Shown here: positions 7,406 through 31,150 of the stretch, one piece after another | Layout of the letters: the number at the start of each line of letters is the position of its first letter | Numbering within the stretch: the first letter of the stretch is position 1 | Assembly (NCBI GenBank): GCA_029258795.1 | Contig: JAPDKB010000007.1 | Coordinates: 192,001 to 256,000 of the forward strand | DNA length: 64,000 nt | Direction of reading: 5' to 3' | Origin: an archaeon | GTDB taxonomy: Archaea > EX4484-52 > WAPT01 | Translations under genes and position numbers: made by a program | Notes under the pieces: model-generated | Told to the model about the DNA's origin: nothing | The model's database searches: none | What the model saw: the letters and a program-made list of their open reading frames with translations, nothing else

Positions 7406-7915
7406 ATGAGTGAGGACAAAAAAAGTGAGAATATGGCTCAAGAAGAGGGCTTTCGGAAGAAGAGGATCAGCTTGGATGAATACTTTGCAAAGATGACCTG
7501 GGTTGTTGCTGAAAGGTCAACCTGCATAATCCCCGGAAGACAGTACGGAGCCATTGTTGTGAAAAACAAGCAGGTGTTATCCACCGGCTACAACGGCGCG
7601 CCGAGAGGCATGACCGACTGCCTTGAACTGGGTTACTGTCCAAAAAGAGCAAAGGGCGGAACAAGCGGAACGATGCATGAGGAATGTATAGCAGTGCATG
7701 CCGAGATGAACGCCCTGATTCAAGCCGGCAGGAATGCAGAGGGTGCAACTCTTTACGTTAATGGATTTCCGTGCAAGCTCTGCGCGAGGTTGATAGTTAA
7801 CGCTGGCATAAAACGGGTTGTAGTTTGCGGGGAGTACAGCGATAGAGAGGGGTTGAAGATTCTGGAGGATGCAGGAATTCAGGTAGATTACATCGATGTA
7901 TCTCACCTGCTCTGA
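7406..7915 (+). CDS. dCMP deaminase (ComEB/DCTD family)
   Basis: DEYF...AERSTC, STGYNGAPRG, HAEMNAL and PCKLC zinc motifs. Confidence 0.9.
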   Translation: MSEDKKSENMAQEEGFRKKRISLDEYFAKMTWVVAERSTCIIPGRQYGAIVVKNKQVLSTGYNGAPRGMTDCLELGYCPKRAKGGTSGTMHEECIAVHAEMNALIQAGRNAEGATLYVNGFPCKLCARLIVNAGIKRVVVCGEYSDREGLKILEDAGIQVDYIDVSHLL

Positions 7916-7951
7916 ACACATCTCTCCTTGCTTACGGAGGAGGAGTATATC

Positions 7952-8560
7952 ATGAAAAAATGGCCGGTGTTCGTTGGAGACTTCAAGGTTGGAAACTTTG
8001 AGGGCTGGATTGCCATAGCCACGTTAAACACACCGTGGGAAGATATGCAGGAACTTCTCGGAATCGAGGGTGTGGCGATAATCGGAAGCGTGAAGACGGA
8101 AAATCTCGGTGTGGAGAAGATAGTTGCAAACGTGATAAGCAATCCAAATATAAGGGTCCTTGTTCTTTGTGGAAGAGAGTCGAAAGGTCATTATCCCGGA
8201 GATGCGCTTATATGCCTTCTCAAGAATGGTGTTGATGAAGAGGGGAGGATAATTGATGCGAGGGGTGCAATTCCCTATCTGGAGAATTTGAGCAGGACGC
8301 ATGTGGAACATTTCAGGAAGCAGATAGTTGAAATTATGGATTTGCGTGAGATTGAGGATGTGGAAATAATAAAGAAGGAGCTGGAGAAATTGAAGGAAAA
8401 AGAGGTTCGACCTTATGAAGGTGGGGCGGTTTATGTTGAGATTGAGGAAAAGAAGGGTGGCGGGCTGCAACATTTTGAAGGAGATGTTGTTTTCATTAAT
8501 GAGGCGGCGCAGATCGACACCTCAACATTTAAAGTTGAGCTGGTAAATCAGCAGGGGTGA
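7952..8560 (+). CDS. mtrA: Soluble MtrA-like corrinoid protein
   Basis: WPVFVGDF, KTENLGVEKIVANVISNPNIR..LCGRESKGH (cobalt-ligand His), GAIPYLENL, FRKQI; no C-terminal TM; GGAGGAGG SD before ATG 7952. Confidence 0.9.
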   Translation: MKKWPVFVGDFKVGNFEGWIAIATLNTPWEDMQELLGIEGVAIIGSVKTENLGVEKIVANVISNPNIRVLVLCGRESKGHYPGDALICLLKNGVDEEGRIIDARGAIPYLENLSRTHVEHFRKQIVEIMDLREIEDVEIIKKELEKLKEKEVRPYEGGAVYVEIEEKKGGGLQHFEGDVVFINEAAQIDTSTFKVELVNQQG

Positions 8561-8564
8561 TTTT

Positions 8565-9452
8565 GTGTTCATCTTTCCGGAGCAGAAGAAGATAAAGATA
8601 GGGACTGTGGAGCTGGGCGGACAGCCGGGAGAGTTGCCTGCGGTGATGGTCAGCACGATGTTTTATGAGGGGCATAAAATTGTGAAAAGTGATGGTGGTT
8701 TTGACAGGGAGAAAGCTGAAGAACTCCTGAACCTCCAGCAGGAGAAGAGCGATGAAACAAAACTGCCATACATAACCAACGTTTATGGGAATGATGCTTC
8801 CTCCCTCATCAAGAGGGTGGAATTCGTGGCTGAAAATGACGAAAATCCCATCATGATTGATTCTCCCAGCTATTCTGCCAGAGTTGAAGCCATGAAATAT
8901 GCTAAGGATTGTGGACTGATTGACAGATGCGTGTACAACTCTCTCAACATCACACTGAATAAAGATGAGAAGGATAAACTTGCTGAGCTCAGCGCGAGGA
9001 ACGTGCTTGTGCTTGCTCATGCTATCAATGAGCAGAGTGTTGAGGATAAGATATCGTGCCTTGAAAAGGATGGTGCGATGGGGAAGGGCTTGCTTGATCA
9101 CGCTAAGGAGATAGGAGCAAGTAACGTGCTGATAGATACTGCGACAACACCCCTGCAGCAAGGAGCATCTCTATCCTTAACTTCTCTGGTCACCTTGAAA
9201 GCCAAATATGGCCTGCCTGTTGGATGTGGAATACACAATGCTGTGAGTTCGTGGGAATGGATAAAGAAAAGAGAAAGCTATAAAGTTGTGGATGCTGCCT
9301 CCGCACTACTGCCTGTGATCCTTGGAGCGGACTTCGTGCTCTACGGACCCATAGAGAATGCAAGATACGTTTTTGATGTTGCTGCGTTTGCTGAAATTCT
9401 GGTAGAGGAAAACGTTTCTCGTTTCACTTCCACATTCGGACTGAGCCTGTGA
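8565..9452 (+). CDS. mtrH: MtrH-like methyl-pterin:corrinoid methyltransferase
   Basis: GGQPGELPAV..TMFYEGHKIV, FDREKAEEL, IDS, YNSL, LIDTA, GLPVGCGIHN, GADFVLYGPIENA. Confidence 0.92.
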   Translation: MFIFPEQKKIKIGTVELGGQPGELPAVMVSTMFYEGHKIVKSDGGFDREKAEELLNLQQEKSDETKLPYITNVYGNDASSLIKRVEFVAENDENPIMIDSPSYSARVEAMKYAKDCGLIDRCVYNSLNITLNKDEKDKLAELSARNVLVLAHAINEQSVEDKISCLEKDGAMGKGLLDHAKEIGASNVLIDTATTPLQQGASLSLTSLVTLKAKYGLPVGCGIHNAVSSWEWIKKRESYKVVDAASALLPVILGADFVLYGPIENARYVFDVAAFAEILVEENVSRFTSTFGLSL

Positions 9453-9465
9453 GGGCATGCACTTT

Positions 9466-12400
9466 TCAGTCACACCTCAAGCATCTCCCGTTAACGAGCC
9501 TCATGCCACATGATGGGCATCTTTCCTTGCTTTCTATGGCCTTCTTGAGATATGTGAGGTACTCATCTCTCGCTACGGGCTCAGTGAAATAGACCAAATC
9601 GGGTCTTCCTGCTGGCTCTGGTTGTTGCGTGGTTCTGGCCACTGTTACCGGCACATTCCCTGCCATAAGTGGAGGAGTTGCGGGGAGTGTTGGCGATTTA
9701 TACGTGGTGACACCTTTCGATTTTTCTGCATGAGTTCTTGCACGTGCGAAGGGGAGCAAGGAAGGTATGCTGAGCTTGCGCTTTCCGTAGGAGTAGGTGG
9801 TGGAAGAGCTCATCCTCGTGTAGTACATCAGTCCAAACAATCCGAGCAGTCCTAAGCTCACGATAACGATCAGCATCGTTTTCCATGGTTTGGCGGGCTT
9901 TTCTTTTGATTCAATAAGATAGCTCTCCATCTGGTTGAGGTAATTTGATGCTCTCGCTATTTTTTGCTGTGCCGCTTCATAATTTCCGCTCATGACGTCA
10001 TCTCTCGCTGATGCCAAAAGGGAGGAAGCTTCATCGTACAGCTGCTGGAGTTCCTGTGGAAGCGACTCTCGATTTATGGCTGTGAGCCTTCCAGCCATGT
10101 TGTCGATGGTGTTCATGAGTGTTTCATATACATCTTCTTGTGTTTCTTCTGATGCCTCTTCACTCACGATGTTTATTTGTGCTGTTGCTGTGGTGCTTAT
10201 CTGGTCAGATGTTATGAGTACGTAGATATCGCTAGAGTAGGAGTAGAGGCACAGGCTATACTCCAGCTCTACACTTTCATTGGGAAGCAGTGTGATCGGA
10301 CTGGATTCAAATGTTATGGAATGTGTGCTTGAAGTAACATCTTTCACCCGTAGATTTGTGATTATTTTCTTGCCCTTATTAGTAACACGAATCGTTCCGA
10401 TTGTGCATCCACCTACCGACACGGACACAGGCGTGGCATAAACGCTCAACTTATACTCATCTTCCTTTTCTGTTGGCTGAGTAACTACTGATGACGTTCC
10501 AGCAATGGAGGTTGTTGGCTCGTAACTCTTGCCATGCGAAGGCGTCGGACAGTAGAAGGACACATATATATCCTTCACTTCCTGATCCGTGAGGTTGAAA
10601 GCTTCCGTCTTAAAGTCGTTACATCTGGGCTTTGTTGCTTTTATCATTACATTTGTGGCTTGTGTTGTTGAGTTCAAAAGGACAAAATTCTCAGCTCCTT
10701 CTTCAGTAATATTTATGGTTTTCACCAGCGTTCCATTGGAATATACGTAAACCATGGTTCCTGCCTGCTGTGAGCTGCTCACAAGGATGTGTAAAATAGC
10801 ATAACCACTTGTCGAGTTTAGCACCAGCGTTAGATTATTACCTGCCTTTTCATTTCCGCCAGCTTTAACCTCAATCCATCTTGGCTCAGCGGGGAAATAT
10901 CCAGCTTTGTAAGCTGATAGCGCATTCATCTCAAGCGTATAGTTGCCGGGAGTCATTTCTCTGAAGAAAACCAGCCCGCTTCCATTTGTTTCTGCACAAG
11001 TCGTCGTGTTGAGGCAGAGCTGAATGTTGCTCAACGGTGTGCCAGTCGTATTAATAACATGGATTGAGTAGCGAGTTTCATTGAAGATTGCAGTTATATT
11101 TGCTATCTTGCCATGTTCATCGAGCTCCACGGCAGTTGGAGCTGAAACCGGGATATACGCATCACTCACAACGTAAGTGATGGTGTAATTACCAAGCGGA
11201 AGCCGTAAGAACTGAACTTTACCGTCTTGAGTCGCGTTTTCAAGCTCAAGTCCAAGCTCCGCATTCCTTATCTTCACCTTTCCATCAAAGCTCTCGTTGA
11301 GATCGTTACTCAAATTAATTATGATAGATGTTGGTTGAAGTTCAATCGTTATTTCCTCAACCTTCCCGCTCTCCATAAAATGATGGACATGGGCTGTGCC
11401 GTAGTTTTCCTCAGTTCCATCAAACACGAAGGTGTAGTTACCCTGACCTAGAAACACAACAGCTTCGCCGTCCTCATTGCTCACCACATGACACAAGTCT
11501 GGCTGTGAGGTTCCAACAAGATAACAAGATATAGAAACGTTTGGGATTGGCATTCGTGTTATGGAATCCACTACTTTTATCCTCATCTCTGACTCGCCGG
11601 CAGTGTAAAGATAAACGCTCTGATTTATGATCTCGTACGTTGTTGACGGAATCTTTATTGGCTGAGGAGCGTTGTATCCTGCAGTCATCACTTCCAAATA
11701 AGACACACCATAATATGGATTAAATCTACCTTCAAGGAGGTTACCTTCCTTCCAGTAAGCTGTGTAAAGAGGAGATCCTACTTCATCAGTTAGCGTGAAG
11801 TTCGCAATTCTGATCTCAACATTTATCGGATCGCCTGTTTTTGCATCGTAAAGATAGATGTAAGATTTTCCAATCGGGACCATTGGAATTATGAAGTTCT
11901 TACTCTCGCCATCTGAAAAGGTTATGAGGTGTGTTTCAGCACTTTCATTATAGTAAGTGTAAGTTTCATAACCCTCCTTGACCACAACGAGCTTGTAGTG
12001 CTGCAGCTCAGCATTTCCCTCCACAGGTGAGCCGAGGGTGTAGGGTGATACTCTTGCATAAAAGTTTCCTGCCGTGTCAGTATGCAATACATATCTTGCC
12101 TGCTGGTCTAATGTTGGGGAAGCATCATAAAGGTAGATGGTGGCGTTGTATATGTTCTTTCTCGAATCAAGGGGATTTATAAAGTAAAGGTCATATACGT
12201 GCCCGCTTATCTCCGCAGTACCGTTCAGATATATTCGGAATGCTGGCTTTATGCCGTAACCGTCCACAACATCATCCAGATAGCTACCTGAAAACCTGAT
12301 TCCCAAATCCTTGGAATTGTAGCTCTCGTAACCTCTAGCGCGTATCAGAACATAATACCGTTTCTGCCCGTCGATACTCAATTTCAAGTGACCGCTTGAA

Positions 12401-15400
12401 GTTGTATTTCCTGCATTCATCTTGAGCCATCCAACCATGAACGCATTTTCTATTATCAACACACCGTAACCCATGGATGTGCCATTAATCACAACATCAA
12501 ACGCATCGGAGGTAACATTGAACGTTGCTTTTCCGCTTGAGTTGGTGTAATTAACATATTCATTTCCTGTAAGGTGAGATATTAGCTTTACAGTGACGTT
12601 TTCAAAAACATTATTTCCTTCTTCATCAACCACAGTTATGGTAATTATAAATCTGTCGTCACTTATGTTCATCGGTTCGAAGGGTGATGATCCCTCCACA
12701 ACATCTGGATCTAGAGCCACAATTTTATGCTCTCCGGTATCGATGTCAATTAGGGTCCAATTTATGGTTCCGCTCTTGTTTACAGTTAAATTACAGTTAT
12801 TGCAGGGGAGCAACCTTCTGAAAATCACCCTACCATTGCTGTCAGTTGTACCATTTACATAGTTGCCGAGAGCGTCTTTTGCAACTCTCCACTCCCCACT
12901 AACATTTTCAAACAGAGTGACCAATGCCCCACTTACGGGATCTCCTTCTGGAGTGTGTACAGTAACGTTCAGCGTCGTGATATTCAGTTTAACATTTAGC
13001 ACGCCTCCCCAGACAACGTTGTAATCATCAAAATTGGCATTCCCGTATCCTTTGTCTTCTCCGATGACTGTTATATCGTATTTTGTATTGTTTTTGAGGT
13101 CCGTGAATCTCGCAATACCGGTAGTGGTGTTTTTCTCTGTCTGATAGTCCGTGCCAGTTACTATAACTGTGATGTTATCGAGAGGATTACCATTCTCGTC
13201 AGTGACATTAACTGTAAAGGTGCTGTCCACTATAGTGAAGGTGTAATTAACCTCCGTGGTGCAGTTTTTGTTTAGATCGCATATGGTTATGTTCCATCTC
13301 CAATTACCGCAACTGAATAGCATAGATGCGGTGTGATTTGTAGAAAATACATTAGAGGTCCATTTGTATGAATTGCTGCCGTTGTAGAACACTACAGAGA
13401 TATTGGTAGATTCGCTTGTAGAGATATTTATTTTGAGACTTATCGGTCCCCTTGAACATGGAGCGCCCAGTACTGTATTGTTCTCCGGCTCAACGGATGT
13501 AACGGACGGAAGCCTGTAATCAACTTTGATGTAATTGTTTCCCGAAAACACGAGAACAGTATTATTGACATCAGGATATCCCAATTTGGTTATAGTGAGT
13601 GTATAGAGTGTTGGTATGACGCCTGAGAATTCCACCTTACCTTCGGTGTCAGTGAGATCCGTTAGCGGTGCACCCGTTTGGTTAAAAGCAATACCGCTTT
13701 CATTCCAGAAAGTAACATTTGCATTGCTTATCTTAGTTGTGCCGTTCACAACTTCAACCAGTACATCTGTAGTGCTATTTGCAAGGATAAAGAAGACCAC
13801 ACTGTTGTTACAGTTGTTGGATTCATCGCACACTTTTATTTTCCATTTCCATGTACCGCAGATAAGTGCTATTTTACGTGTGTGGTTGGTGCGGAGTTCC
13901 GTATCATTGAAGTAATTTAACGGTGTGCTCTCCTGATCCTTGTAGAATTCTGAATAGAGAGTCGTGTTCTCATTTGTTGCGACCCAGTAGGTCATTTTCT
14001 CTGGAGAGTCTTGATTACAGTCAATGATTACGAAGGAATTGTTTTTGGGGTTGGTGCCCACTATCAATGGAGGGTATATATCTAAAGTCACGTTATTCTC
14101 GCCTTCACGAACGGTAATAGATTTTTCGTAGTGATGCTGTGTGGGGGAATAAACATCAACAGTGAGCTTGTAAGTGTATGGTTGAAGCATATCGAAAAGC
14201 ACGCTTCCGTCTGATGATGTAAGTGATGTTAGTGGAGTCCCAGCAGTGTTCCTTGCTATAGATGAGCCGTTCCAGAGTGTGACATTTGCGTTTGCTATGG
14301 GTTTGACACCATTCGTGATTACGACTTTCAGATAGGTTCGAACGAAGTTAATCGTGTAGTTGTTCTTCTTACCCGCCATATCGGTAGTGAGCGTGTAGGT
14401 ATCATATTTTATTCCACATCCCTGCGATACAGCGTCCACTTTTATTCTGTATGCGCCGACTGGTACGAACTTGAACATGACTGATCCATTATCATTTGTT
14501 GTTGCTGTGAATCTGCACAGATTTCTTGTTGCTTGTGCTGGGGTGCATCCGTCTGTCTTGTTCATCTCCACCAAAATTCCGCTGTGAGAACACCCGGTGG
14601 TGTTAATAGTTAGATTCAGTGTTGTTATGTTGAGGCCCTGAGTTTCGTATTCTCCCTTTTCATCAGTTCTGAAGAACAAAATTACTTCAGCGTTTGGAAT
14701 AGGTTTGTTGTTATAATAATCGTAAACGAACGTCTCAAAGTAAGCTTTCAATTTTATTGAATTTTCTCCTGTAAAATTGTAGTTGGGTGGGTAAACCTTA
14801 CTATAACCGTCCCATGCAAGGTATCCGTGTTGATAAGCTCTGATCTTGTACTGTGTGGTGTTGTCAACGTGAATGGTGAAGCTTCCGTCGATGTTCTTTT
14901 TCTGATATATGAGTTCACCGGTATCCGGCAGATAGAGCTCAACCGTGGCGTTGTGCAGCGGCTCTCCTGAGTATGCATCCACCAAGCTACCTTTTATGGT
15001 GCCTGCACCTCTCAGCTTATGAACTGTCCACATGTTTATGAATGCTGTACCGGTCTCGTTTTTCGTTAGATAACCTTCTTTACTGAAATTGATGATATAA
15101 TTCGAGGTAACACCCAGATAGGCATCGAAATAACCATCTCCATCCGTCATAAAGACATAGCGCAATATCGTGGTGTTACTGGAGTTTTCCTTTATTTCAA
15201 TTCTAACGTTGGAGAGGGGCCGATCATTTTCTTCATCTATTACATATCCGTGAAAATGAGTGTATCCTCTCAAAACAAAGTTCTTAGTTACGGTATCTCT
15301 ATCGATTATTAAATCGTAATAGGGACTGCTATTGTAACCGAGTCGAGAAGCTTGAATACGAATCATTTTATCCTTAGGCACCCTTATGGAATATGCTCCG

Positions 15401-18400: not shown

Positions 18401-18774
18401 CCTCTGAGTACTACATCAACATAGTTCGGACATGTTCCCGCCGTTGCATTACACGTACCGTTGTTTCCATAAAGAGAAATGTCTACAAACTTACTATTAT
18501 TCTCACCTATGGCGGAGATGTTGTTGAAGCCCAGATAGAGCACAAGGGAAGCATCATAGATGGAGTAATTCGCGCCATCCAGCGTGAGATTCAGCTGCGT
18601 CATGTTCACTGCCTCAACACTTGAGTTGACCTCGAACCACGAGTGGTTCAGTATCGAGTTGTTGGAAGGAGTTGGTGGGACGAAAGTTGCAACCGGCAGC
18701 GCTAATGCTGCTTCTGCAGAGATCAACAGGAGTAATAGCAGTATCGCCGCGCCTCCTGCTCGCTTTCTACTCAT
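9466..18774 (-). CDS. Giant (~3100 aa) cell-surface protein: signal peptide, LamG/ConA-like domain, tandem Ig-like and carboxypeptidase-regulatory-like beta-sandwich repeats, C-terminal TM and Cys4 tail
   Basis: FDGVDDYI...VDELRIYNRTLS (LamG); VDTTPPVI repeats; many 'P+.NA.V...TD..G.F' repeats; abundant NxS/T; TM TMLIVIVSLGLLGLFGLMYY; terminal CPSC...CLRC; start at ATG 18774 assumed. Confidence 0.85.
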   Translation of the reverse strand: MSRKRAGGAAILLLLLLISAEAALALPVATFVPPTPSNNSILNHSWFEVNSSVEAVNMTQLNLTLDGANYSIYDASLVLYLGFNNISAIGENNSKFVDISLYGNNGTCNATAGTCPNYVDVVLRGVEFDGVDDYIEIDDSPSLHITDELTIMAWISVGETGLNHTIVEKNGSYYLFVDSNGYLTFYTYVSGEFDKEIQYPLNLFHDAYFVAISRNSTTTKLIILEEDAPQLFVITAPNRGLMDVSNDPLRIGRRLAGTDAANGIVDELRIYNRTLSEDEIIKIFSLSYLAKLNTTRWEYLIIPFNLSDGTHTFAIWVEDNSTTLNTTGTMVVTVDTTPPVIHINSPQNNSVVNTSNIMLNVSVSDLTSTNITYEIDNNGTIFTLCNDCSNAATTLTLQDGTHTITVYATDSAGWVNSSTITVTVDTTPPVIDILSPQNTTIYTTNVLDLNISISDTTPANITYEIDSNGTVFTLCTNCFGGTTTLTFNDGIHNITVYAVDSAGWTNSSFLVFDVSTTPLNITVIDGENLQPVSGVSVTVTGYPFGLSITQPTNADGKTTVFVDKTLLYNIYADKEGYITTVLTNINLSTTNNLTVPIFGNTTINGKVIGISEYGFLTISNATVRIINNQTGMVEYVLQTDDEGYFSLRIRGTFDYTLEVDAGTNFIMRRWNFTASTELNNYTFYVYKRGLASFKMRVVDYQNGMPLDNATVTFVLSESTNFTTVTNSSGFAWIFVRGGYVDEGFPYCYRLVVERYGYRTRNETFTSYCVMEGEEKDLGSITLKGNYLMRGRLVDEFNTDLGVSGAHVTLRKWTPNGIGGFVGEEYGYNYSTISNDSGDWEIYVPPYMLDEHGFVIEAQRDGYFAANFTNEGSGYTISENGTRYLPPFFMRGAIHVKIKLLDFYSNKPVPGINVKIEELDNFGFNYPQYATYNFYTDSEGFVDAYIRENNYYTLIVGGSDSGYKPLQLYAVGDINGTYYLEGTLYISGRVLDVNRDENNATITLPLIPIKLCPSSGLAYCYDVTSSYGGNFSLYVKGNEIYKITANGTEEGYNHTTISVDGRGTDFLSVDLVLEGRSVIKGVVRDEACSDSRILYVNPCNIPNPKIKVEFNINGKEIYPVVVGDKNGAYSIRVPKDKMIRIQASRLGYNSSPYYDLIIDRDTVTKNFVLRGYTHFHGYVIDEENDRPLSNVRIEIKENSSNTTILRYVFMTDGDGYFDAYLGVTSNYIINFSKEGYLTKNETGTAFINMWTVHKLRGAGTIKGSLVDAYSGEPLHNATVELYLPDTGELIYQKKNIDGSFTIHVDNTTQYKIRAYQHGYLAWDGYSKVYPPNYNFTGENSIKLKAYFETFVYDYYNNKPIPNAEVILFFRTDEKGEYETQGLNITTLNLTINTTGCSHSGILVEMNKTDGCTPAQATRNLCRFTATTNDNGSVMFKFVPVGAYRIKVDAVSQGCGIKYDTYTLTTDMAGKKNNYTINFVRTYLKVVITNGVKPIANANVTLWNGSSIARNTAGTPLTSLTSSDGSVLFDMLQPYTYKLTVDVYSPTQHHYEKSITVREGENNVTLDIYPPLIVGTNPKNNSFVIIDCNQDSPEKMTYWVATNENTTLYSEFYKDQESTPLNYFNDTELRTNHTRKIALICGTWKWKIKVCDESNNCNNSVVFFILANSTTDVLVEVVNGTTKISNANVTFWNESGIAFNQTGAPLTDLTDTEGKVEFSGVIPTLYTLTITKLGYPDVNNTVLVFSGNNYIKVDYRLPSVTSVEPENNTVLGAPCSRGPISLKINISTSESTNISVVFYNGSNSYKWTSNVFSTNHTASMLFSCGNWRWNITICDLNKNCTTEVNYTFTIVDSTFTVNVTDENGNPLDNITVIVTGTDYQTEKNTTTGIARFTDLKNNTKYDITVIGEDKGYGNANFDDYNVVWGGVLNVKLNITTLNVTVHTPEGDPVSGALVTLFENVSGEWRVAKDALGNYVNGTTDSNGRVIFRRLLPCNNCNLTVNKSGTINWTLIDIDTGEHKIVALDPDVVEGSSPFEPMNISDDRFIITITVVDEEGNNVFENVTVKLISHLTGNEYVNYTNSSGKATFNVTSDAFDVVINGTSMGYGVLIIENAFMVGWLKMNAGNTTSSGHLKLSIDGQKRYYVLIRARGYESYNSKDLGIRFSGSYLDDVVDGYGIKPAFRIYLNGTAEISGHVYDLYFINPLDSRKNIYNATIYLYDASPTLDQQARYVLHTDTAGNFYARVSPYTLGSPVEGNAELQHYKLVVVKEGYETYTYYNESAETHLITFSDGESKNFIIPMVPIGKSYIYLYDAKTGDPINVEIRIANFTLTDEVGSPLYTAYWKEGNLLEGRFNPYYGVSYLEVMTAGYNAPQPIKIPSTTYEIINQSVYLYTAGESEMRIKVVDSITRMPIPNVSISCYLVGTSQPDLCHVVSNEDGEAVVFLGQGNYTFVFDGTEENYGTAHVHHFMESGKVEEITIELQPTSIIINLSNDLNESFDGKVKIRNAELGLELENATQDGKVQFLRLPLGNYTITYVVSDAYIPVSAPTAVELDEHGKIANITAIFNETRYSIHVINTTGTPLSNIQLCLNTTTCAETNGSGLVFFREMTPGNYTLEMNALSAYKAGYFPAEPRWIEVKAGGNEKAGNNLTLVLNSTSGYAILHILVSSSQQAGTMVYVYSNGTLVKTINITEEGAENFVLLNSTTQATNVMIKATKPRCNDFKTEAFNLTDQEVKDIYVSFYCPTPSHGKSYEPTTSIAGTSSVVTQPTEKEDEYKLSVYATPVSVSVGGCTIGTIRVTNKGKKIITNLRVKDVTSSTHSITFESSPITLLPNESVELEYSLCLYSYSSDIYVLITSDQISTTATAQINIVSEEASEETQEDVYETLMNTIDNMAGRLTAINRESLPQELQQLYDEASSLLASARDDVMSGNYEAAQQKIARASNYLNQMESYLIESKEKPAKPWKTMLIVIVSLGLLGLFGLMYYTRMSSSTTYSYGKRKLSIPSLLPFARARTHAEKSKGVTTYKSPTLPATPPLMAGNVPVTVARTTQQPEPAGRPDLVYFTEPVARDEYLTYLKKAIESKERCPSCGMRLVNGRCLRCD

Positions 18775-18781
18775 GAACTCT

Positions 18782-19006
18782 CTACTCTTCTTCCTCCTCA
18801 TTCACCACACCAACACCACTCACAACATGTTTCGGCAAGTAAACATGCGCTCTGCCAACCACCACCCTCTCAAGCAGTCCCTGCTGCCTCATTGCTTCCA
18901 GATACCCCGTCAAGAATTCTCTTCTAAGCTTGAGACGTTTGGCTAGTTCAGAAACAGACATGGGCTTCCTTGAGAGCTCTTCCATTATCCTCTCATGAAT
19001 CTCCAT
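18782..19006 (-). CDS. Small winged-helix DNA-binding protein
   Basis: IMEELSRKPMSVSELAKRLKLRREFLTGYLEAMRQQGLLER..VGRAHVY pattern; ends 7 nt before the giant gene start. Confidence 0.75.
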   Translation of the reverse strand: MEIHERIMEELSRKPMSVSELAKRLKLRREFLTGYLEAMRQQGLLERVVVGRAHVYLPKHVVSGVGVVNEEEEE

Positions 19007-19179
19007 CCAACATCACAAAACCGCACTTGTTCTCTTTATCTCTATACCTCAAGCACTCGAGTTAATGAGTTAAAGGACAAAAAGCCCTATATAAAGATTT
19101 CCATATTGCCGTCAATATGATGTGCAAGCTTTGCGACAAATTCGCTTATAATAAAAATTTTACCCACGAAGGTCTTATC

Positions 19180-19872
19180 ATGCTAATAATAGGCACGAAC
19201 ACGGAAGACGCTTGGAGAAAGGCCGTTAAAGCTGTGATGGAACACGGCAGAACCATAGTTAGTGAAGATGGTGATGAAACTAAGGAGATAATAGGGCTTG
19301 CGGTGAGGATACTCAAACCCACCATAAGCATAGATAAAGCTCCACCCGAATACCCATTCCATGGAAAAGCTCTGCAGGATTATGTTGATCAGCTCATGAC
19401 ACCTGAAAACAGATGGGGCTTTGAGTACACTTATGGTGAGCGTATATGGAACTGGAACAATCAGGTCAATCAGGTTGAAGCGATAATTGAGCGGCTTGCT
19501 AAGAGTCCTTTCAGCAGGCGTGCGGTCATTGACCTCACCATTCCCACCATGGACCACTTTCCCGAAAAGATAAGAGATCCTCCCTGCCTCAGAGTTATCT
19601 GCTTTAACATAAGGGAGGAGAAGGAAGCGCCAATGCTGCCTGCGGTAAAGAAACTTCACACGGACGTGCTCTTCAGAAGCCACGATATATTTGGAGCAAG
19701 CTATGCGAACTGGGTGGCGCTCGCTCACCTTCAAAAACATGTTGCTGATGAAGTTGGAAGACGGAGAGGAGAGCGGATATTCATGGGAGAGCTGCACAGC
19801 TATTCCGTCTCAGCCCATATTTATGGCAGGGATTTTGAGATGGCCGATAGGGTTGCAAGGTCAACTAATTGA
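19180..19872 (+). CDS. thyA: Archaeal-type thymidylate synthase (ThyA-like)
   Basis: FEYTYGERI, SRRAV, PPCL (catalytic Cys), FRSHD, AN (dUMP-selecting Asn), SAHIY; start at ATG 19180 assumed. Confidence 0.9.
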   Translation: MLIIGTNTEDAWRKAVKAVMEHGRTIVSEDGDETKEIIGLAVRILKPTISIDKAPPEYPFHGKALQDYVDQLMTPENRWGFEYTYGERIWNWNNQVNQVEAIIERLAKSPFSRRAVIDLTIPTMDHFPEKIRDPPCLRVICFNIREEKEAPMLPAVKKLHTDVLFRSHDIFGASYANWVALAHLQKHVADEVGRRRGERIFMGELHSYSVSAHIYGRDFEMADRVARSTN

Positions 19873-20007
19873 ATTCTTTAGCTCAAACTGGATTAACTTA
19901 AGGTGAAATGATGGCTGGTCATACTGTGGAAGTGCTGGCAAAAAAATGGAGAGATATCGAGAAGATACTTTACAGAAGTTATATATGGAGTTACGTGTGC
20001 TGAAGTC

Positions 20008-20463
20008 GTGAAAGCAATCTATTTTCAGCAATTGGAAGAAGCAAAAAAGTTCAAGTACCCGGCCATCCATACATCGGAAACTCTGGGAAAACTGGTGAGG
20101 TCCATCAGAAAGGTCGACGCGAAAGAGGACGAGAGACATGACGTAAAACTCGGGAAAAGGGTGCTGAAGTGTTTGAGAAATATCGAGTATCTGTGCAATT
20201 CAGGAAAACCCGTTCTCTCTGATTACGACATAACACTTGAAATAAACACCTACAGGATGCACGATCTGCTGATGGATGTTTGTGAAGATTGTGAATTTAT
20301 GATAAATCCAAGAACCTGTTACAGGGAAGGTTTCTGTGGTGCTGAAAAAATCCAAGAGAGGATTCTCGAAGTTGTTCGAAAGAATTATGGAAAGAAGGGT
20401 GTCAAACCTCAAATACACGAAATAAGCGTGAGCGCAGAGTTCTATAGTCTCCTCCGAAAGTAA
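20008..20463 (+). CDS. Hypothetical Cys-motif protein (paralog 1; true start uncertain)
   Basis: CEDC-x8-CYREGFC; aligns along its length with the next ORF. Confidence 0.6.
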   Translation: MKAIYFQQLEEAKKFKYPAIHTSETLGKLVRSIRKVDAKEDERHDVKLGKRVLKCLRNIEYLCNSGKPVLSDYDITLEINTYRMHDLLMDVCEDCEFMINPRTCYREGFCGAEKIQERILEVVRKNYGKKGVKPQIHEISVSAEFYSLLRK

Positions 20464-20550
20464 TGCTGATTCAGTTTAAACTAAATAGAGATATGTTTAA
20501 ATTTCATCGAATAAAAATTTAAAAATATTTGTTATGATTATTACTTATTA

Positions 20551-21018
20551 GTGGTTACCATGATCGAAGATGCGCGCAGGCTGGAAAAAAGAAAGGAAAA
20601 GGTGTTGAGAAACAAACCCGGTGGTGTAAAAGTAGAGGAGTTCTTAAAAAGACTTTCCGAAATGCAGAAAGGGTATGAGCCTCTGTACACACGGGAAGAC
20701 ATCCATAAAATCATGAAAAGTTTCAATCCGGAGGTTCCTCCTCACTCAGTTAATTGTATGCTTGAATATATTAAAGAGCTCTCCAGATTAAATGGACACG
20801 GCAATGGAATAAAGGTGGAAATAGAAACAAATTATCTATGGAATGTTATAGAGAGGTACTGCCGCAGATGTCCGGGCGAACAAAGACTCTCGTGCTACAG
20901 AAAGGGTGAGTGCACACTCAATATATTACCAAAGAGTGTAGTGGAGCTATACAAGGAAAAGATGCCCTGTGCAGAAGGAAGAAAGACTCGAGTTTATAAT
21001 ATTAGGGTCACGATGTGA
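20551..21018 (+). CDS. Hypothetical Cys-motif protein (paralog 2)
   Basis: CRRC-x7-CYRKGEC; TTTAAA TATA-like motif upstream. Confidence 0.6.
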   Translation: MVTMIEDARRLEKRKEKVLRNKPGGVKVEEFLKRLSEMQKGYEPLYTREDIHKIMKSFNPEVPPHSVNCMLEYIKELSRLNGHGNGIKVEIETNYLWNVIERYCRRCPGEQRLSCYRKGECTLNILPKSVVELYKEKMPCAEGRKTRVYNIRVTM

Positions 21019-21056
21019 AGATTCATATAAAAATTCTGGTGCTGTATGAATAAACT

Positions 21057-21545
21057 ATGCGCATCTCCCAGCAAATATGGCCGAGAAGCGTTGTGCTCGT
21101 GTGCAGCGTGGATGAAGATGGTAAAGCAAATGTTATGACCGCGAGCTTTGTCATGCCTGTAAGCTTTAACCCAAAATACATAGCTGTTTCCATCTCTCCC
21201 AAACGTCACACCTTCTCCAACCTTCAGAAAGTTAGAGAGATGACCATCAACGTTTGCGATGTGAACATGAAGAAAGCTGCTGATATCTGCGGTACTTACT
21301 CGGGCAAGAATGTGGATAAGTTCGAGCTAGCAAACCTCACTGAGGAGAAATCAAGAAAGATCAGGGTACCGTGTATAAAGGAAGCACCAATCAGTTTTGA
21401 ATGTGTGGTTGAAGGTATGCATGAATACGGAGACCATTTTATCGTTGTGGGGAGGGTTGTGGAGGAGCACGTGAGGAAAGCTGAGTTCGAGCCGCTGCTT
21501 CATGGAAGTGGGGATGATTACTTCACCGCAAGAAAGATCGACTGA
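21057..21545 (+). CDS. Flavin reductase-like FMN-binding protein (flavoredoxin family)
   Basis: PRSVVLV, GKANVMTAS, SFNP, HTFSN, CGTYSGKNVDKF, P.IKEA..FEC, GDH..VGRV. Confidence 0.9.
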   Translation: MRISQQIWPRSVVLVCSVDEDGKANVMTASFVMPVSFNPKYIAVSISPKRHTFSNLQKVREMTINVCDVNMKKAADICGTYSGKNVDKFELANLTEEKSRKIRVPCIKEAPISFECVVEGMHEYGDHFIVVGRVVEEHVRKAEFEPLLHGSGDDYFTARKID

Positions 21546-22557
21546 GGATTTCATCCAGCAGCTCATATTTATTGAAGCACATGAGGTGTACACCCCTGAA
21601 GTCAAGTTCTCTGCTCAATTTGATCATTTCCCTCGTTCTTTCAATTCCGGCAGCTTCGCCTTCTTTTTTTACCGCTTTGATGAGCTCTTCATCTATTCTC
21701 ATACCCGGCACTCTTTTCAGCTCTTCAACCATTTCAGCCGAGATCAAGGGTAACACGCCCACGATCACCTTTCTTCTGAACTCTTCATCCAGTTTCCTGG
21801 CCAGCTCTTCGAGAACTGTAAAGCTGAACACTGCCTGTGTCTGGGCAAAATCAGCGTACCTCATCTTCTTTCTGAACTTGAGCAACTCATTCTCAAGCGG
21901 GACTGCGTTTGGGTTAAGAGCGACACCCACGCTTAGCGTGCGGAACCTCTCATTCTCGTCCTTCTTGAGCTTCCATGCAAGATAGGTTGAATCCACAAAG
22001 AAGTGTGCTTTCCTCCCTTTAGAGTAATCTCCAGTCAGCAGGAGCACGTGGTTTATGCCAGCAATTCTTGCAGCGAGCAGCTTTGAAGTTATCACTTCCA
22101 TACTCTTGTTCCTGCAGACCACCTGCAGAATCGGGATGATATGTTTTTCCATGAGCCAGCATGCAACCATAAGATTGTCAGCATGTTCTTTTCCCATCGG
22201 GTTGTCCGTCACATTTACTGCATCGATAAGGTGAGATCTTTTTTGTAACTTTTCCATCAGTTCAGCTATTTTTTCCTTTTCACCGAACGGAGCAAGCTCG
22301 GTTGTGACTACAAAATCCTTGGAAAAAAATGATGGCTCAACTCTCGGTGGCGTGAAATCCTCAAGCTTCTGCCCTTCATGAAAAATGGAAATGATTTCGT
22401 TTTCCATGCCCGCGTTTCTCAGCTCGTTCATGATTTCAGCCCATGCACACCTGCCGCCAAGCTCACAAATCCCATCATGGCTTCCGCCACATGGCCCATT
22501 CCACATTTGTTTCGGGCAGCGATCGTGTGCTTCTACAACCAGTTTGAAAATATTCAT
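21523..22557 (-). CDS. metF: Methylenetetrahydrofolate reductase (MetF) with N-terminal Cys-rich MetV/MTHFR_C-like segment
   Basis: CPKQMWNGPCGG..GICE...CAW followed by VTTELAP, DAVNVTDNP, QVVCRNKS, LLLTGD, ADFAQTQ, GVHLM; start ATG 22557 with AAGGTG SD. Confidence 0.88.
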   Translation of the reverse strand: MNIFKLVVEAHDRCPKQMWNGPCGGSHDGICELGGRCAWAEIMNELRNAGMENEIISIFHEGQKLEDFTPPRVEPSFFSKDFVVTTELAPFGEKEKIAELMEKLQKRSHLIDAVNVTDNPMGKEHADNLMVACWLMEKHIIPILQVVCRNKSMEVITSKLLAARIAGINHVLLLTGDYSKGRKAHFFVDSTYLAWKLKKDENERFRTLSVGVALNPNAVPLENELLKFRKKMRYADFAQTQAVFSFTVLEELARKLDEEFRRKVIVGVLPLISAEMVEELKRVPGMRIDEELIKAVKKEGEAAGIERTREMIKLSRELDFRGVHLMCFNKYELLDEILSRSFLR

Positions 22558-22682
22558 TAAAGCCACCTTCAATCCCGTTTTTCTTACCACTTTCAAGCAC
22601 TTCAAGATAGATATGGATGTTAGATGTTAAAATTGTTGTGTTGTTTCGCTCTCTCAAAAAATGCCACTTCCTGTTCATCATT

Positions 22683-22856
22683 TCATCCTGACACAAACTT
22701 TTCCATATCTTTCAGGTCGAAGCACCATACTTTCCTGCTCTCAAACTCATCAATTCTTTTGCTGAAGCTCTTGGCAAAAATGGCAAAGCTTTCCTTTCTC
22801 TCATCGCTGTGCCAGTCAACGTGCTTTGATTTTTCGGCAAGTTCTTTAACAATCTT
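22683..22856 (-). pseudogene. Remnant of the C-terminus of an archaeal ATPase/DUF234-type protein
   Basis: My translation: KIVKELAEKSKHVDWHSDERKESFAIFAKSFSKRIDEFESRKVWCFDLKDMEKFVSG*; in-frame stop directly upstream and no start codon; family call from recalled motif. Confidence 0.5.
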
Positions 22857-22962
22857 TCAGCAAATTCAATCATTTCAAGATTCTGTGGCTCATGCGTGAC
22901 TGCTCACCCAGCTGCATCAGAGCAACACATTTTAATTAATTACCGTCCAACACCATTCTGTG

Positions 22963-24210
22963 ATGAGGATGAACCCTGATGAAATTATTGGAGAGGTTGT
23001 ACATCTTACCAGGCTCCACGATCTCTGGCGCAAATACGAGTGCATAAATTTGATAGCTTCTGAAAACATTATGTCCCCGAAAGCAGAAGAGCTTTATATC
23101 AACGACATGATGCACCGCTATGCTGAAGGACTGCCGTTCAAGCGGTACTATCAGGGTCACAAGTATCTCGATGAAGTGGAGGTAAAAGCGCAGCAGCTCA
23201 TGGCCGGGCTTTTCAATGCCGCACATGTTGATTTGCGCCCCTTAAGCGGCACGATAGCTAACCTTGCTGTCTTTGTCGCGTTTCTGGAAAACGGGAATAA
23301 GGTTGCTGCGCTTGACGTCCCTCACGGCGCTCACGTCTCTCACACGATTCATGGCGCGTTGGGATTGAGGGATGTGGAGGTGCTGCAGCTGCCGTTTGAT
23401 AAGGAAAGAATGAACATAGATGTTGATAAGGCGGTAAAGCTTGTGGAGCAGGAAAAGCCAGATATGATTATTCTGGGGGCGTCGCTATTCCTTTTCCCGC
23501 ATCCAGTAAAAGAGATAAGCGATGCCGCCAAGAGTTATGGAGGGCTTGTTGTGTATGATGCCGCCCATGTACTCGGATTGATAGCGGGTAAGCAGTTCCA
23601 GCAGCCATTTGAGGAGGGAGCAGATGTGGTCACGAGCTCAACCCACAAAACCTTCCCCGGCCCGCAGGGCGGCGTGATAATGGCTGCTGAGCATGTTGAT
23701 TTCGAGAGGGTGCAGAAGGCGATATTTCCAAAACTTGTGTGCAATCACCACATCCACCGGCTCCCTGCTTTGGCTCAGACCGCCTGGGAGATGTGGAGGT
23801 ATGGTGAAGCTTACGCCAGACAAACAATAAAGAACGCCAAAGCGTTGGCTGAGAAGCTGTCTGAGCTGGGCTTTAAAGTGCTGGCTGAAGAGCATGGATT
23901 TACCGAAAGCCATCAGGTTGTGATAGATGTGAGGGAGTACGGTGGCGGAAAGGTTAACGCTGAGAAGCTGGAAGCAAACAACATCATAGCCAATAAAAAC
24001 ATGATTCCGGGAGATGAGGCAAGCAGCGAGACCATGAAGAATCCTTCCGGCATAAGGATCGGCACGCAGGAGATGACGAGATGGGGCTGCAAGGAGAAGG
24101 ACATGGAGGCAATAGCGGAGTTCATACATCGTGTTGTGGTCAAGGAAGAGAATGTGAAGGATGATGTAATGGAGTTCAGAAAGAGTTTTAGGGAGGTGCG
24201 CTACTGCTGA
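22963..24210 (+). CDS. glyA: Serine hydroxymethyltransferase (archaeal type)
   Basis: INLIASEN, RYAEGLPFKRYYQG, SGTIAN, HGAHVSH, YDAAHVLGLIAG, SSTHKTFPGPQGG (PLP Lys), PSGIRIGTQE. Confidence 0.96.
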   Translation: MRMNPDEIIGEVVHLTRLHDLWRKYECINLIASENIMSPKAEELYINDMMHRYAEGLPFKRYYQGHKYLDEVEVKAQQLMAGLFNAAHVDLRPLSGTIANLAVFVAFLENGNKVAALDVPHGAHVSHTIHGALGLRDVEVLQLPFDKERMNIDVDKAVKLVEQEKPDMIILGASLFLFPHPVKEISDAAKSYGGLVVYDAAHVLGLIAGKQFQQPFEEGADVVTSSTHKTFPGPQGGVIMAAEHVDFERVQKAIFPKLVCNHHIHRLPALAQTAWEMWRYGEAYARQTIKNAKALAEKLSELGFKVLAEEHGFTESHQVVIDVREYGGGKVNAEKLEANNIIANKNMIPGDEASSETMKNPSGIRIGTQEMTRWGCKEKDMEAIAEFIHRVVVKEENVKDDVMEFRKSFREVRYC

Positions 24211-24542
24211 TGCTTCCCCACAAGATATTTGAGATAAAAGCTGAGAAGCACAGCGAGGCAGAAATAAAGCTGGACAAGCATTTCTTCGTTATAAACGTTG
24301 ATCATGAATCAAAGGAAATCGTGGTTGAAGCTTATGAATATCTGGGCACGGAAACAAGACCGGGGAGTGGAAAGCTGAAGTTCATCTTCAGGGGGAAGAA
24401 TGGTATAGATCTTTTTCGCACAATACTTAAGTATGACCTCGTGAGCATGCTGGATCATGCTGCATATCTGGGCTATGAGCTTGCCAGAGCCGAGGAATGC
24501 CTGAAATCCGGCAAAAAGTACGTGCAGGACGAGAACGGATAA
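24210..24542 (+). CDS. DUF4346-family protein
   Basis: LD..FFVINVD...EIVVE...FRGK....L...I....LVSMLDHAAYLGYELARAE.CL..GKKYVQD; TGATG overlap with glyA. Confidence 0.85.
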   Translation: MLPHKIFEIKAEKHSEAEIKLDKHFFVINVDHESKEIVVEAYEYLGTETRPGSGKLKFIFRGKNGIDLFRTILKYDLVSMLDHAAYLGYELARAEECLKSGKKYVQDENG

Positions 24543-31038: not shown

Positions 31039-31150
31039 ATTTTACTACTTAATAGTAACATATTTAAATTGTTGTTCTCCCTACCCTCTTTAATTCGACT
31101 ATCAACGAACTTACAACCAAATTTAAAGCTTCTGAGCGATGTTTTTCATC

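Follow-up and report, generated by a model that had tools for sequence, protein, structure and literature searches.

Soluble MtrA and MtrH linked to an archaeal-type thymidylate synthase in DPANN archaea: a candidate cobamide-dependent route to thymidylate

A stretch of 64,000 nucleotides from a small DPANN archaeon (contig JAPDKB010000007.1, positions 192,001 to 256,000; hereafter the window) carries genes for a soluble MtrA-type cobamide protein, an MtrH-type methyltransferase and an archaeal-type thymidylate synthase (ThyA). A functional coupling between MtrA and ThyA is very likely, because the two are fused in relatives, their genes share operons, two unrelated enzymes forming deoxyuridylate (dUMP) occur as neighbours, their distribution is complementary to that of ThyX, and no other methyl acceptor was found. 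We further propose that MtrA, MtrH and the archaeal-type ThyA together form the thymidylate synthase of the cell, with the cobamide-bound methyl group passed directly to dUMP, a reading whose chances we regard as evenly balanced.

The thymidylate locus

The host genome comprises 1.17 Mb in 23 contigs and is 96.3 % complete. Pfam and NCBIfam searches confirmed every gene named by the first-pass annotation at its coordinates; a deaminase, a soluble MtrA, MtrH, ThyA, a flavin reductase, a methylene-pterin reductase (MTHFR), a serine hydroxymethyltransferase (SHMT) and a DUF4346 protein are indeed encoded between 7406 and 24542, as it had claimed. The features of the locus are:

6159 to 7367, forward strand: DUF1512 protein (Pfam PF07431 and PF23542)
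7406 to 7915, forward strand: probable dCMP deaminase (dCD), dCMP/cytidine-deaminase family (PF00383, 73.9 bits)
7928 to 8560, forward strand: MtrA-type cobamide protein, soluble (PF04208, 178.4 bits against a cut-off of 25)
8565 to 9452, forward strand: MtrH-type methyl-pterin:cob(I)amide methyltransferase (PF02007, 271.8 bits)
9466 to 18801, reverse strand: giant surface protein of 3111 residues, Ig-like/CarboxypepD_reg (Pfam)
19117 to 19872, forward strand: archaeal (methanogen-type) ThyA (PF00303, 49 bits; TIGR03283, 172.9 bits)
21057 to 21545, forward strand: Flavin_Reduct (FMN split-barrel) protein (PF01613, 127 bits)
21523 to 22605, reverse strand: MetV-MetF fusion, methylene-pterin reductase (PF12225/DUF5981 at residues 28-73; PF02219/MTHFR at residues 95-356)
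22960 to 24210, forward strand: SHMT, GlyA (PF00464, 234 bits; NF000586, 453 bits)
24210 to 24542, forward strand: stand-alone DUF4346 protein (PterinBD-DUF4346, PF14251, 74.6 bits against a cut-off of 29.6)

The deaminase carries an HAE...PCKLC zinc motif, and its top NCBIfam match is of the ComEB/dCMP-deaminase type, under the cut-off of that family; it is probably a dCMP deaminase and thus a putative source of dUMP. The gaps are 12 nucleotides from its gene to mtrA and 4 from mtrA to mtrH, and the DUF1512 gene, which ends 38 nucleotides before the deaminase gene, may belong to the same transcription unit. The DUF4346 gene overlaps the glyA stop by 1 nucleotide, which indicates translational coupling. 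The giant gene stands between mtrA-mtrH and thyA in the window and is missing at that place in two genomes of the same genus, G001 and G002.

MtrA and ThyA are fused in relatives

When the phylum was searched with the window MtrA (42 genomes collected; all counts below refer to the 41 that were searched with all families), matches were found inside open frames of about 486-620 residues. Six genomes of genus g3 encode MtrA followed by ThyA in one stop-free frame of 419-517 residues (PF04208, E 1.6e-41; PF00303, 1.1e-14; TIGR03283, 8.6e-22), and a seventh copy of this type, in G032, ends at a contig edge. In two genomes of g8, proteins of 594-611 residues combine MtrA with a ThyA-like part containing insertions (hhalign 83 %, E 8.8e-6 for the copy of G014). 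A search that started from such a fusion gave 70 proteins. Both PF00303 and PF04208 are present in 42 of these (331-475 residues), and eight (480-490 residues) have PF14251 as well, in the order MtrA-ThyA-DUF4346; MtrA-DUF4346, MtrA-FeS and MtrA-MtrH architectures also occurred. When 1.84 billion representatives were scanned in full with HMMER, 847 matched at E <= 0.001, about a dozen of them full-length clusters, and nine more full-length fusions were present on metagenome contigs. Judging by the few source labels (DPANN, Aenigmarchaeota, Nanohaloarchaea, Nanoarchaeia), the fusions come mainly from DPANN archaea; one contig is labelled Methanoperedens, and one bacterial contig (Staskawiczbacteria) carries the long MtrA form.

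Neither SHMT, MTHFR nor ThyX was found in any of the 13 fusion-bearing genomes (0/13 each). The fusion is thus their only candidate thymidylate synthase, and the fused enzyme would work where no source of methylene-pterin was found. In a tree of ThyA domains (44 rows, excluding five long type-C proteins and with the classical outgroup on a long branch), the triple fusions formed a clade (96/87) that was joined weakly (66/74) to the MtrA-ThyA fusions, a topology compatible with one origin of the fusion or with several.

No conserved cobamide loader was found beside the fusions, whose neighbours vary by locus: in g3 they are a RimK-like pair, TFIIB and MscS, two metagenome contigs have a thymidylate-synthase-like paralogue, and a gene resembling S-adenosylhomocysteine hydrolase occurs on a single contig. 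The g3 pair (L039:7870-9616 and L044:9964-11722) consists of two RimK-family ATP-grasp genes that adjoin the fusion in divergent orientation, and one such gene scores 144 bits, under the cut-off, against the tetrahydromethanopterin:glutamate ligase MptN; a link of the pair to pterin or cofactor tailoring is possible. The paralogue is an open reading frame (ORF) just upstream of the fusion that overlaps its start (L140:6745-7995 and L145:53-1135, both on the forward strand; 34 % identity between the contigs, E 1e-44). It has no Pfam match, shows thymidylate-synthase-like motifs by eye (LRSVDLYDG.PFNLYF, LHAY) and may be a second, very divergent member of the fold. A phage link hinted at by one Atlas cluster was dropped: MtrA had no tblastn match among 50,697 phage records, and none of the 112 stretches that fitted a pattern in an IMG/VR scan was confirmed.

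Gene order links the same proteins in several ways

All three genomes of the window's genus g1 (the window genome, G001 and G002) have the order DUF1512-dCD-mtrA-mtrH. In g6, mtrA is preceded by a dCTP deaminase (PF22769/TIGR02274), which is unrelated to the dCMP deaminase yet also forms dUMP. The mtrH and thyA genes are adjacent in G033, G007, G027 and G025, and they lie in one operon in g6. Among 11 public DPANN thyA loci, mtrH is adjacent in four and about 0.7 kb away in a fifth; of the other six contigs, four end too near thyA for a neighbour to be seen. G011 encodes an MtrA-MtrH fusion followed by an ORF of 454 residues that resembles ThyA over its first 220 (hhalign 98.6 %, E 1e-15; TIGR03283, 84 bits), and a thymidylate kinase gene is found 2 kb away. 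The association that the first-pass annotation had drawn from one locus is therefore not confined to the window: it recurs across the phylum in several gene orders, with the partners joined in at least five further ways, and MtrA-ThyA and MtrA-ThyA-DUF4346 exist as single polypeptides.

Divergently upstream of the G011 fusion lies methanogenesis marker 14 (L045:1535-2872, reverse strand; TIGR03285, 295 bits, over the cut-off), in a non-methanogen. As a general fourth component this protein was discarded, since it exceeds its cut-off in one of the 41 genomes only, G011 itself.

Of 71 metagenome loci with other stand-alone MtrA homologues, 10 were annotated, and they comprised ars-like clusters, a position after a split MtmB gene and a position near a URO-D gene; partners such as MtmB, URO-D and S-adenosylmethionine (SAM) methyltransferase/ars genes are as expected for a modular methyl carrier that works with different partners. 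In L150, L158, L167, L200, L155 and L175, MtrA homologues stand among an ArsP permease, an ArsC-like low-molecular-weight phosphatase and SBF/Acr3-type and MIP transporters, together with a SAM methyltransferase, an FMN reductase and MerB, which hints at a corrinoid protein in clusters for metalloid or metal methylation or detoxification. At L193:6613-8765 and L212:7947-10926, the homologue follows a monomethylamine methyltransferase (MtmB) gene in three pieces, or lies near a URO-D/MtaA-type gene. The three pieces may reflect a pyrrolysine codon or frame breaks, and MtrA-type carriers appear to occur in methylamine-type systems too.

Distribution complementary to ThyX

Archaeal-type ThyA and MtrA occur together in 20/41 genomes. 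ThyA without MtrA was seen in three, all 78-86 % complete. Six have MtrA without a PF00303 match, and these are the two long fusions, one with an adjacent ThyA-like ORF, one with a cut fusion and two unexplained cases (68-80 % complete). The 12 genomes with neither protein comprise nine with ThyX, one with a classical ThyA (327 bits) and two with nothing. Counted by genus, both proteins are present in 8/13, neither in 4/13 and ThyA only in 1/13. An anti-correlation of MtrA with ThyX, anticipated by the first-pass annotation, was found: neither MtrA nor MtrH is present in any of the ten genomes with a strong ThyX match (84 bits or more), and the genome with classical ThyA also has no MtrA. G001 and G002 depart from this pattern, as each has a tandem ThyX-like gene besides MtrA. 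SHMT is present in all eight ThyX genomes of g5 and g13 and in the classical-ThyA genome.

The window genome has no known methyl acceptor

The first-pass annotation had seen no folA, thyX or methionine synthase in the window, and profile searches extended this to the whole genome for PF00186, PF02511 and PF01717. Neither dihydrofolate reductase (DHFR, PF00186), ThyX (PF02511) nor a second ThyA was found, so the protein at 19117-19872 is the sole thymidylate-synthase candidate of the genome. Also absent genome-wide were MetE/MesA (PF01717), MetH-type homocysteine-binding (PF02574), PF02310 B12-binding, URO-D/MtaA-type (PF01208) and CdhD (PF03599) proteins. A full mtr operon or another methyl acceptor elsewhere in the genome, which would have accounted for mtrA and mtrH otherwise, did not turn up: MtrE (PF04206) is absent genome-wide, although no separate searches were made for MtrB, C, D, F or G, and all known acceptor families are missing. 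The genome thus holds a single MtrA and a single MtrH, one copy of each, without a known methyl acceptor.

Features of the MtrA, MtrH and ThyA proteins

The MtrA of the window matches the solved MtrA structures 5LAA, 5L8X and 8Q3V at E 3e-40, and its true start is likely the ATG at 7952, which is preceded by a GGAGG run. The relevant passages of PMC4915002 name the axial ligand His84, its partner Glu54 and the GAIPF/YxEN segment as the cobalamin-binding heart of MtrA. When aligned to 5LAA, the window protein retains the equivalents of Glu54, Asn55, Gly57, Asn64, His84 and GAIPYxEN (KTENLG, SKGH, GAIPYLEN), and these intact contact residues make it a candidate cobamide carrier. No hydrophobic anchor or C-terminal membrane helix was detected in it (maximum KD19 = 1.08). 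The missing anchor, the missing MtrE and the deaminase and MtrH neighbours together argue for a soluble homologue rather than a subunit of an Mtr complex. The MtrA-ThyA fusions retain His84, Thr53, Asn55, Gly57, Asn64 and Tyr18. MtrH is full-length (positions 2-290 of 299 of PF02007); it scores 270.8 bits against TIGR01114, 0.6 bit under the equivalog cut-off of 271.4, and 186 bits against MtgA. According to PMC4915002, in the part bearing on MtrH, this protein loads the MtrA cobamide with the methyl group of methyl-tetrahydromethanopterin (methyl-H4MPT).

ThyA scored 172.9 bits against TIGR03283, whose cut-off is 174.55, and covered profile positions 3-200 of 201; it is 33-39 % identical to ThyA of Methanosarcinales. 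Its likely start is the ATG at 19180, as residues 1-17 are disordered in the model and relatives have about 230 residues. The AlphaFold2 (AF2) model (pLDDT 88.6, pTM 0.86) has the thymidylate-synthase fold, with Foldseek E values of 2.5e-13 to 1e-10 against the PDB; there were 396 PDB matches at E <= 0.001, and among the matches listed all were thymidylate synthases or relatives of the same fold. The best PDB sequence match was T4 dCMP hydroxymethylase (E 0.0018), and a PDB search with the window ThyA found no solved structure of an archaeal-type ThyA. Cys157, SRR, YTYG (Y104), R187-S-H-D190, N198 and H234-x-Y236 are invariant across stand-alone and fused ThyA. From classical ThyA we take Cys157 to be catalytic and assign the dUMP-binding columns; likewise, the Asp of R-S-x-D is presumably the pterin contact, and the Asn eight residues past it presumably the position for dUMP-type specificity. 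The window ThyA and the MtrA-ThyA fusions stop 0-17 residues past H-x-Y, and the classical ThyA P0070 continues for about 55 residues, a C-terminal segment which we assume to be the part closing over folate. A predicted complex of ThyA and MtrA, each with its own alignment, scored 0.00 against a mark of 0.32 in a run without controls that counts neither way.

Two recently released structures among the top neighbours of the ThyA model, PDB 9iqu and 9iqc, are annotated by their titles as flavin-dependent dCMP hydroxylases. This flavin likeness is of note as a flavin reductase gene is a conserved neighbour of thyA in genus g1.

DUF4346, flavin reductase and pterin enzymes

The DUF4346 protein probably serves the pterin/MtrA/ThyA set as an accessory or adaptor. 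A stand-alone copy is present in 13 of 14 MtrH-positive genomes, and elsewhere the domain forms part of fusion proteins with MtrA-ThyA, with MtrA or with ThyA. The glyA-DUF4346 adjacency is preserved in g1 and g6. The AF2 model of the protein is confident (pLDDT 88.6) and gave no Foldseek match in the PDB at E <= 0.001; the best Z of a wide VIA-align search (6.1; ribosomal, EVH1 and PH-like small beta/alpha modules) lay in the range of chance and was rejected as a clue to the fold. A role for the invariant DUF4346 His as a stand-in for a lost MtrA His84 was also rejected, as the MtrA-DUF4346 fusions retain His84. No paper on DUF4346 by name was found in the open PMC and bioRxiv literature searched. 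The C-terminal tails of the window MtrA (8400-8560) and of the g6 MtrA end in a 'D..(S/T)F.(V/I)' strand, which resembles by eye the first DUF4346 strand after MtrA in the MtrA-DUF4346 fusions, and it is conceivable that this tail is a docking site for stand-alone DUF4346.

In G001 and G002 the flavin reductase gene lies directly downstream of thyA. Its product could supply electrons for cobamide re-reduction, or serve as a dihydropterin or flavin reductase. MTHFR is present in 12/41 genomes, including 5/7 of g6 and 4/4 of g11.

A proposed route and its alternatives

The proposed route would begin with GlyA, which would convert serine to methylene-pterin, and MetVF would reduce this to methyl-pterin. 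MtrH would then transfer the methyl group to the Co(I) of MtrA. The cysteine of ThyA would add to C6 of dUMP, supplied by the deaminase encoded just before mtrA, and the resulting C5 carbanion would take the methyl group from CH3-Co(III), yielding thymidylate (dTMP) and Co(I); the pterin would stay in the tetrahydro form, and no DHFR would be needed. MtrH, MtrA and ThyA would make up a corrinoid methyltransferase system of three parts, in which the second methyltransferase has a thymidylate-synthase fold. The first methyltransferase and the corrinoid protein are encoded together, mtrA and mtrH being 4 nucleotides apart in the window and fused in G011. By fusion, synteny and co-occurrence, ThyA appears to be the only candidate for the second methyltransferase, the known families of this type being absent. 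We infer the two ThyA steps, the identity of the pterin, what DUF4346 and the flavin reductase contribute, and the reactivation of Co(II), for which the flavin reductase is a possible stand-in for an activase. Since MtrA is known only as a methyl carrier and MtrH only as its loader, and ThyA makes a C5 nucleophile, direct transfer is the simplest synthesis of these observations. It would account for the missing DHFR, for the truncated C-terminus of ThyA and for the persistence of the fused enzyme in genomes in which no SHMT turned up.

Several observations weigh against direct transfer. MtrH was found in none of the 13 fusion-bearing genomes, which leaves the methyl loader there unexplained, and MTHFR was found neither in those genomes nor in G001 and G002. 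Glu54 is replaced by Ala in every MtrA-ThyA fusion examined. The triple fusions have lost the equivalents of both His84 and Glu54 and, by eye, also of Thr53 and Asn64, and the Atlas clusters of about 500 residues with ThyA and DUF4346 are mostly bacterial, with MtrA recognised in 18 % of the members of one cluster; cobamide binding is therefore doubtful for the triple-fusion branch, and the degenerate MtrA there, like the loader in MtrH-less genomes, is left unexplained by direct transfer. The presumed pterin-contacting Asp is invariant in this ThyA group, so pterin may still bind. Neither a RACo-type activase (PF14574) nor a DHPS-type pterin-synthesis protein was found genome-wide, and from the latter result the cell probably does not synthesise its own pterin. 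G001 and G002 possess, besides ThyA and MtrA-MtrH, a tandem ThyX-like gene of 431 residues between glyA and thyA, where the window genome has MetV-MetF; in G001 (L127:2066-3358, forward strand) it has two PF02511 domains with 102.9 bits in all and scores 47 bits, under the cut-off, against TIGR02170. The genomes are related, so the phyletic pattern represents perhaps four or five independent lineages. Farther afield, MtrA, MtrH, DUF4346 or a deaminase lies within 10 kb of thyA in 0/69 Methanosarcinales loci, and ThyA or MtrH lies near MtrA in 0/71 of the other stand-alone metagenome loci. In the literature searched, no precedent was found for a cobamide that donates its methyl group to a carbon of a nucleotide. 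Moreover, Nyce and White reportedly observed in 1996 that Methanosarcina extracts formed dTMP from formaldehyde-derived methylene-pterin. Krone et al. are also said to have dealt with archaeal dTMP synthesis in 1994.

A rival reading is a conventional ThyA reaction, in which the methylene group would come from the methylene-pterin made by GlyA, the dihydropterin would be re-reduced by an enzyme other than DHFR, such as the flavin reductase, and MtrA would be attached as a scaffold, regulator, pterin-handling helper or reductant and not as methyl donor. The retained fold and Asp of R-S-x-D, the adjacent GlyA and DUF4346, the flavin-reductase gene adjoining thyA in G001 and G002 and the triple fusions without cobalamin ligands all agree with it. 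So does the flavin use of which enzymes of this fold are capable (the top structural matches include PDB 9iqu and 9iqc), and methylene-H4MPT is the assumed donor of archaeal ThyA in the pertinent passages of PMC9723798 and PMC11362671. Nevertheless we hold this reaction to be unlikely. SHMT and MTHFR were found in 0/13 genomes that bear a fusion, SHMT is present in all lineages with ThyX or classical ThyA for which the data are good, and the C-terminal segment of classical ThyA is missing. The reaction gives no role to MtrH, which is in an operon with thyA in g6 and fused to MtrA beside a thyA-like gene in G011, and the cobalamin-contact residues are retained in the window MtrA and in the MtrA-ThyA fusions. 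The relay put forward by the first-pass annotation, from serine through methylene-pterin, methyl-pterin and methyl-cobamide on MtrA to dUMP, has accordingly to be divided: the coupling of MtrA, MtrH and DUF4346 with ThyA stands on the fusions, operons, ThyX complementarity and lack of another acceptor, and the chemistry and the full relay stay a proposal. The supply branch does not hold generally, since GlyA, MetF and MtrH were found in 0/13 fusion-bearing genomes and MTHFR was not found in G001 and G002, and the triple fusions are without His84 and Glu54. The annotation's own alternative, is a relay running in reverse, in which methyl groups from some methylated compound would be caught on MtrA and pass through MtrH to pterin, and MetVF would oxidise them to the methylene-pterin that a conventional ThyA uses. 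This alternative fits poorly and is quite improbable. Although MtrH, MetVF and GlyA are all present in the window genome, MtrH and MTHFR co-occur in g6 and g11, and the soluble MtrA-MtrH pair has been guessed to funnel methyl groups into one-carbon pathways (PMC9635834, in the section on these proteins), the genome has no Mta/Mtt-type substrate methyltransferase or B12 protein (PF02310 and PF01208 absent genome-wide), and GlyA already supplies methylene-pterin. Furthermore, the genomes with MtrA-ThyA fusions yielded neither MtrH nor MTHFR (0/13), and dCD-mtrA-mtrH is kept in G001 and G002, where MTHFR was not found.

The clustering might also be incidental, with MtrA-MtrH serving an unrelated acceptor such as methionine, a cofactor, a metal or a metalloid, and ThyA acting independently. 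The thyA gene of the window is some 10 kb away from mtrA-mtrH, with the giant gene between them, the genes are unlinked in g11, MtrA homologues elsewhere belong to ars-like and methylamine clusters, and Methanosarcinales show no linkage. The fusions, operons and phyletic complementarity all indicate a link, however, either of two unrelated dUMP-forming deaminases precedes mtrA, and the known acceptor enzymes were not found in the genome, so that we rate an incidental arrangement as very improbable. A product other than dTMP has a fainter prospect still: the ThyA-like protein would make another C5-modified pyrimidine nucleotide, as phage hydroxymethylases and hydroxylases do, and thymidine nucleotides would be salvaged from a host, DPANN archaea being commonly host-dependent. 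The T4 dCMP hydroxymethylase match (E 0.0018), a dCMP hydroxylase and a CMP hydroxymethylase among the top fold matches and the second thymidylate-synthase-like paralogue upstream of the fusion on two metagenome contigs would suit such a product. Against it, the Asn eight residues after the Asp is invariant at what we take to be the position seen in dUMP users, the best family match is TIGR03283, these genomes have no other thymidylate synthase, and dUMP-forming deaminases and a thymidylate kinase are encoded nearby.

Relation to known systems

Classical ThyA (EC 2.1.1.45) has the same fold as the window protein (Foldseek E about 1e-12, TM 0.6-0.68) and the same Cys, SRR, R-S-x-D, Asn and H-x-Y. 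The window ThyA differs in its low identity (14-21 %), in the missing C-terminal residues (about 55), in having no DHFR partner and in its linkage or fusion to a cobamide protein, and its proposed donor is methyl-cobamide instead of methylene-folate. Methanogen-type ThyA (TIGR03283) is its best family, although the score lies just under the cut-off and thyA of Methanosarcinales has no MtrA or MtrH neighbour. ThyX fills the same metabolic slot without DHFR and is present in lineages of the phylum without MtrA, but it has an unrelated fold and uses methylene-folate and FADH2. On the corrinoid side, the window MtrA matches solved MtrA of the methanogen Mtr complex and MtrH is a full-length PF02007 protein; in contrast to that complex, MtrA has no anchor, there is no mtr operon, and the partner is ThyA instead of MtrE and coenzyme M. 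Systems of the MtaB/MtaC/MtaA type follow the same logic, with one methyltransferase that charges a corrinoid protein and another that passes the methyl group on to a nucleophile, whereas here the carrier is of the MtrA type and not PF02310, the acceptor enzyme would have a thymidylate-synthase fold, the acceptor would be a carbon of dUMP, and no activase of the RACo/RamA type was found. The methylcobalamin:homocysteine methyltransferase of methanogens, a MetE homologue referred to in PMC9723798, is a case of a folate-type enzyme family re-used with a corrinoid donor. The phage dCMP hydroxylase AfhB (PDB 9iqu and 9iqc, by their titles) has the same fold with a cofactor site that accepts a non-folate, but its substrate is dCMP, its cofactor is flavin, and it has no cobamide protein.

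No paper on an MtrA-thymidylate synthase link or on a cobamide-dependent thymidylate synthase was found among open PMC and bioRxiv full texts, without supplements. Where both subjects occur, Mtr and Mer are taken only as a supply of methylene-H4MPT for ThyA, at least in the passages concerned of PMC11362671 and PMC9723798. The corresponding parts of PMC9931769 and PMC9012536 describe archaeal thymidylate synthases as not further characterised and their cofactor as hard to predict. The role of MtrA-MtrH in non-methanogens is called unclear in the portions of PMC9635834, PMC11291895 and bioRxiv 10.1101/2025.06.25.661132 that discuss it, the first two call the soluble pair a remnant, and the relevant part of bioRxiv 10.1101/2025.11.11.687807 uses MtrA and MtrH as evidence for a methanogenic last archaeal ancestor.

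What is new here is a ThyA-fold enzyme that appears to be served by an MtrA-type corrinoid protein, each of a known kind; the evidence supports the coupling, and the chemistry is our proposal. The natural MtrA-ThyA fusions are single polypeptides on which the one-carbon donor of archaeal ThyA can be settled, and the soluble MtrA-MtrH pair gains a concrete candidate job in the synthesis of DNA precursors. If true, a thymidylate role would alter what MtrA and MtrH can tell about a methanogenic ancestor, direct transfer would be a new cobamide-dependent reaction in which a methyl group moves to a nucleotide carbon, and ultra-small symbiotic archaea would have a new vitamin dependency. Tentatively, the reading might be extended to all TIGR03283 ThyA, including those of methanogens, anaerobic methanotrophic archaea and Asgard archaea, as methylcobamide:dUMP methyltransferases fed by an MtrA-type corrinoid protein, with MtrA or soluble paralogues encoded elsewhere in the genomes of these three groups. 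We consider this extension doubtful. If it held, it would add a third, DHFR-free chemistry for dTMP beside ThyA and ThyX, as the first-pass annotation had envisaged, and would give the widespread 'remnant' MtrA-MtrH of non-methanogens a housekeeping role that weakens both proteins as methanogenesis markers.

Other features of the window

Three small ORFs of the locus (20008-20463, 20551-21018 and 22624-22899) have no Pfam or NCBIfam family and no tblastn match in the same-genus loci. A second giant secreted or surface protein of 1632 residues is encoded at 42918-47813 on the reverse strand, and CarboxypepD_reg, Ig-like, PKD and Laminin_G_3 domains are found in the giant proteins (3111 and 1632 residues). 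An Endonuclease dU gene (31139-31729, forward strand; PF01949, 209 bits) places a repair function for uracil in DNA 7 kb from the thymidylate genes. Finally, a probable acquired island for restriction-modification or defence, low in GC content (0.32-0.36), occupies 53369-56938 on the reverse strand; its products are an N6/N4 DNA methylase and two endonucleases, one GmrSD-type and one DpnII/BanI-like.

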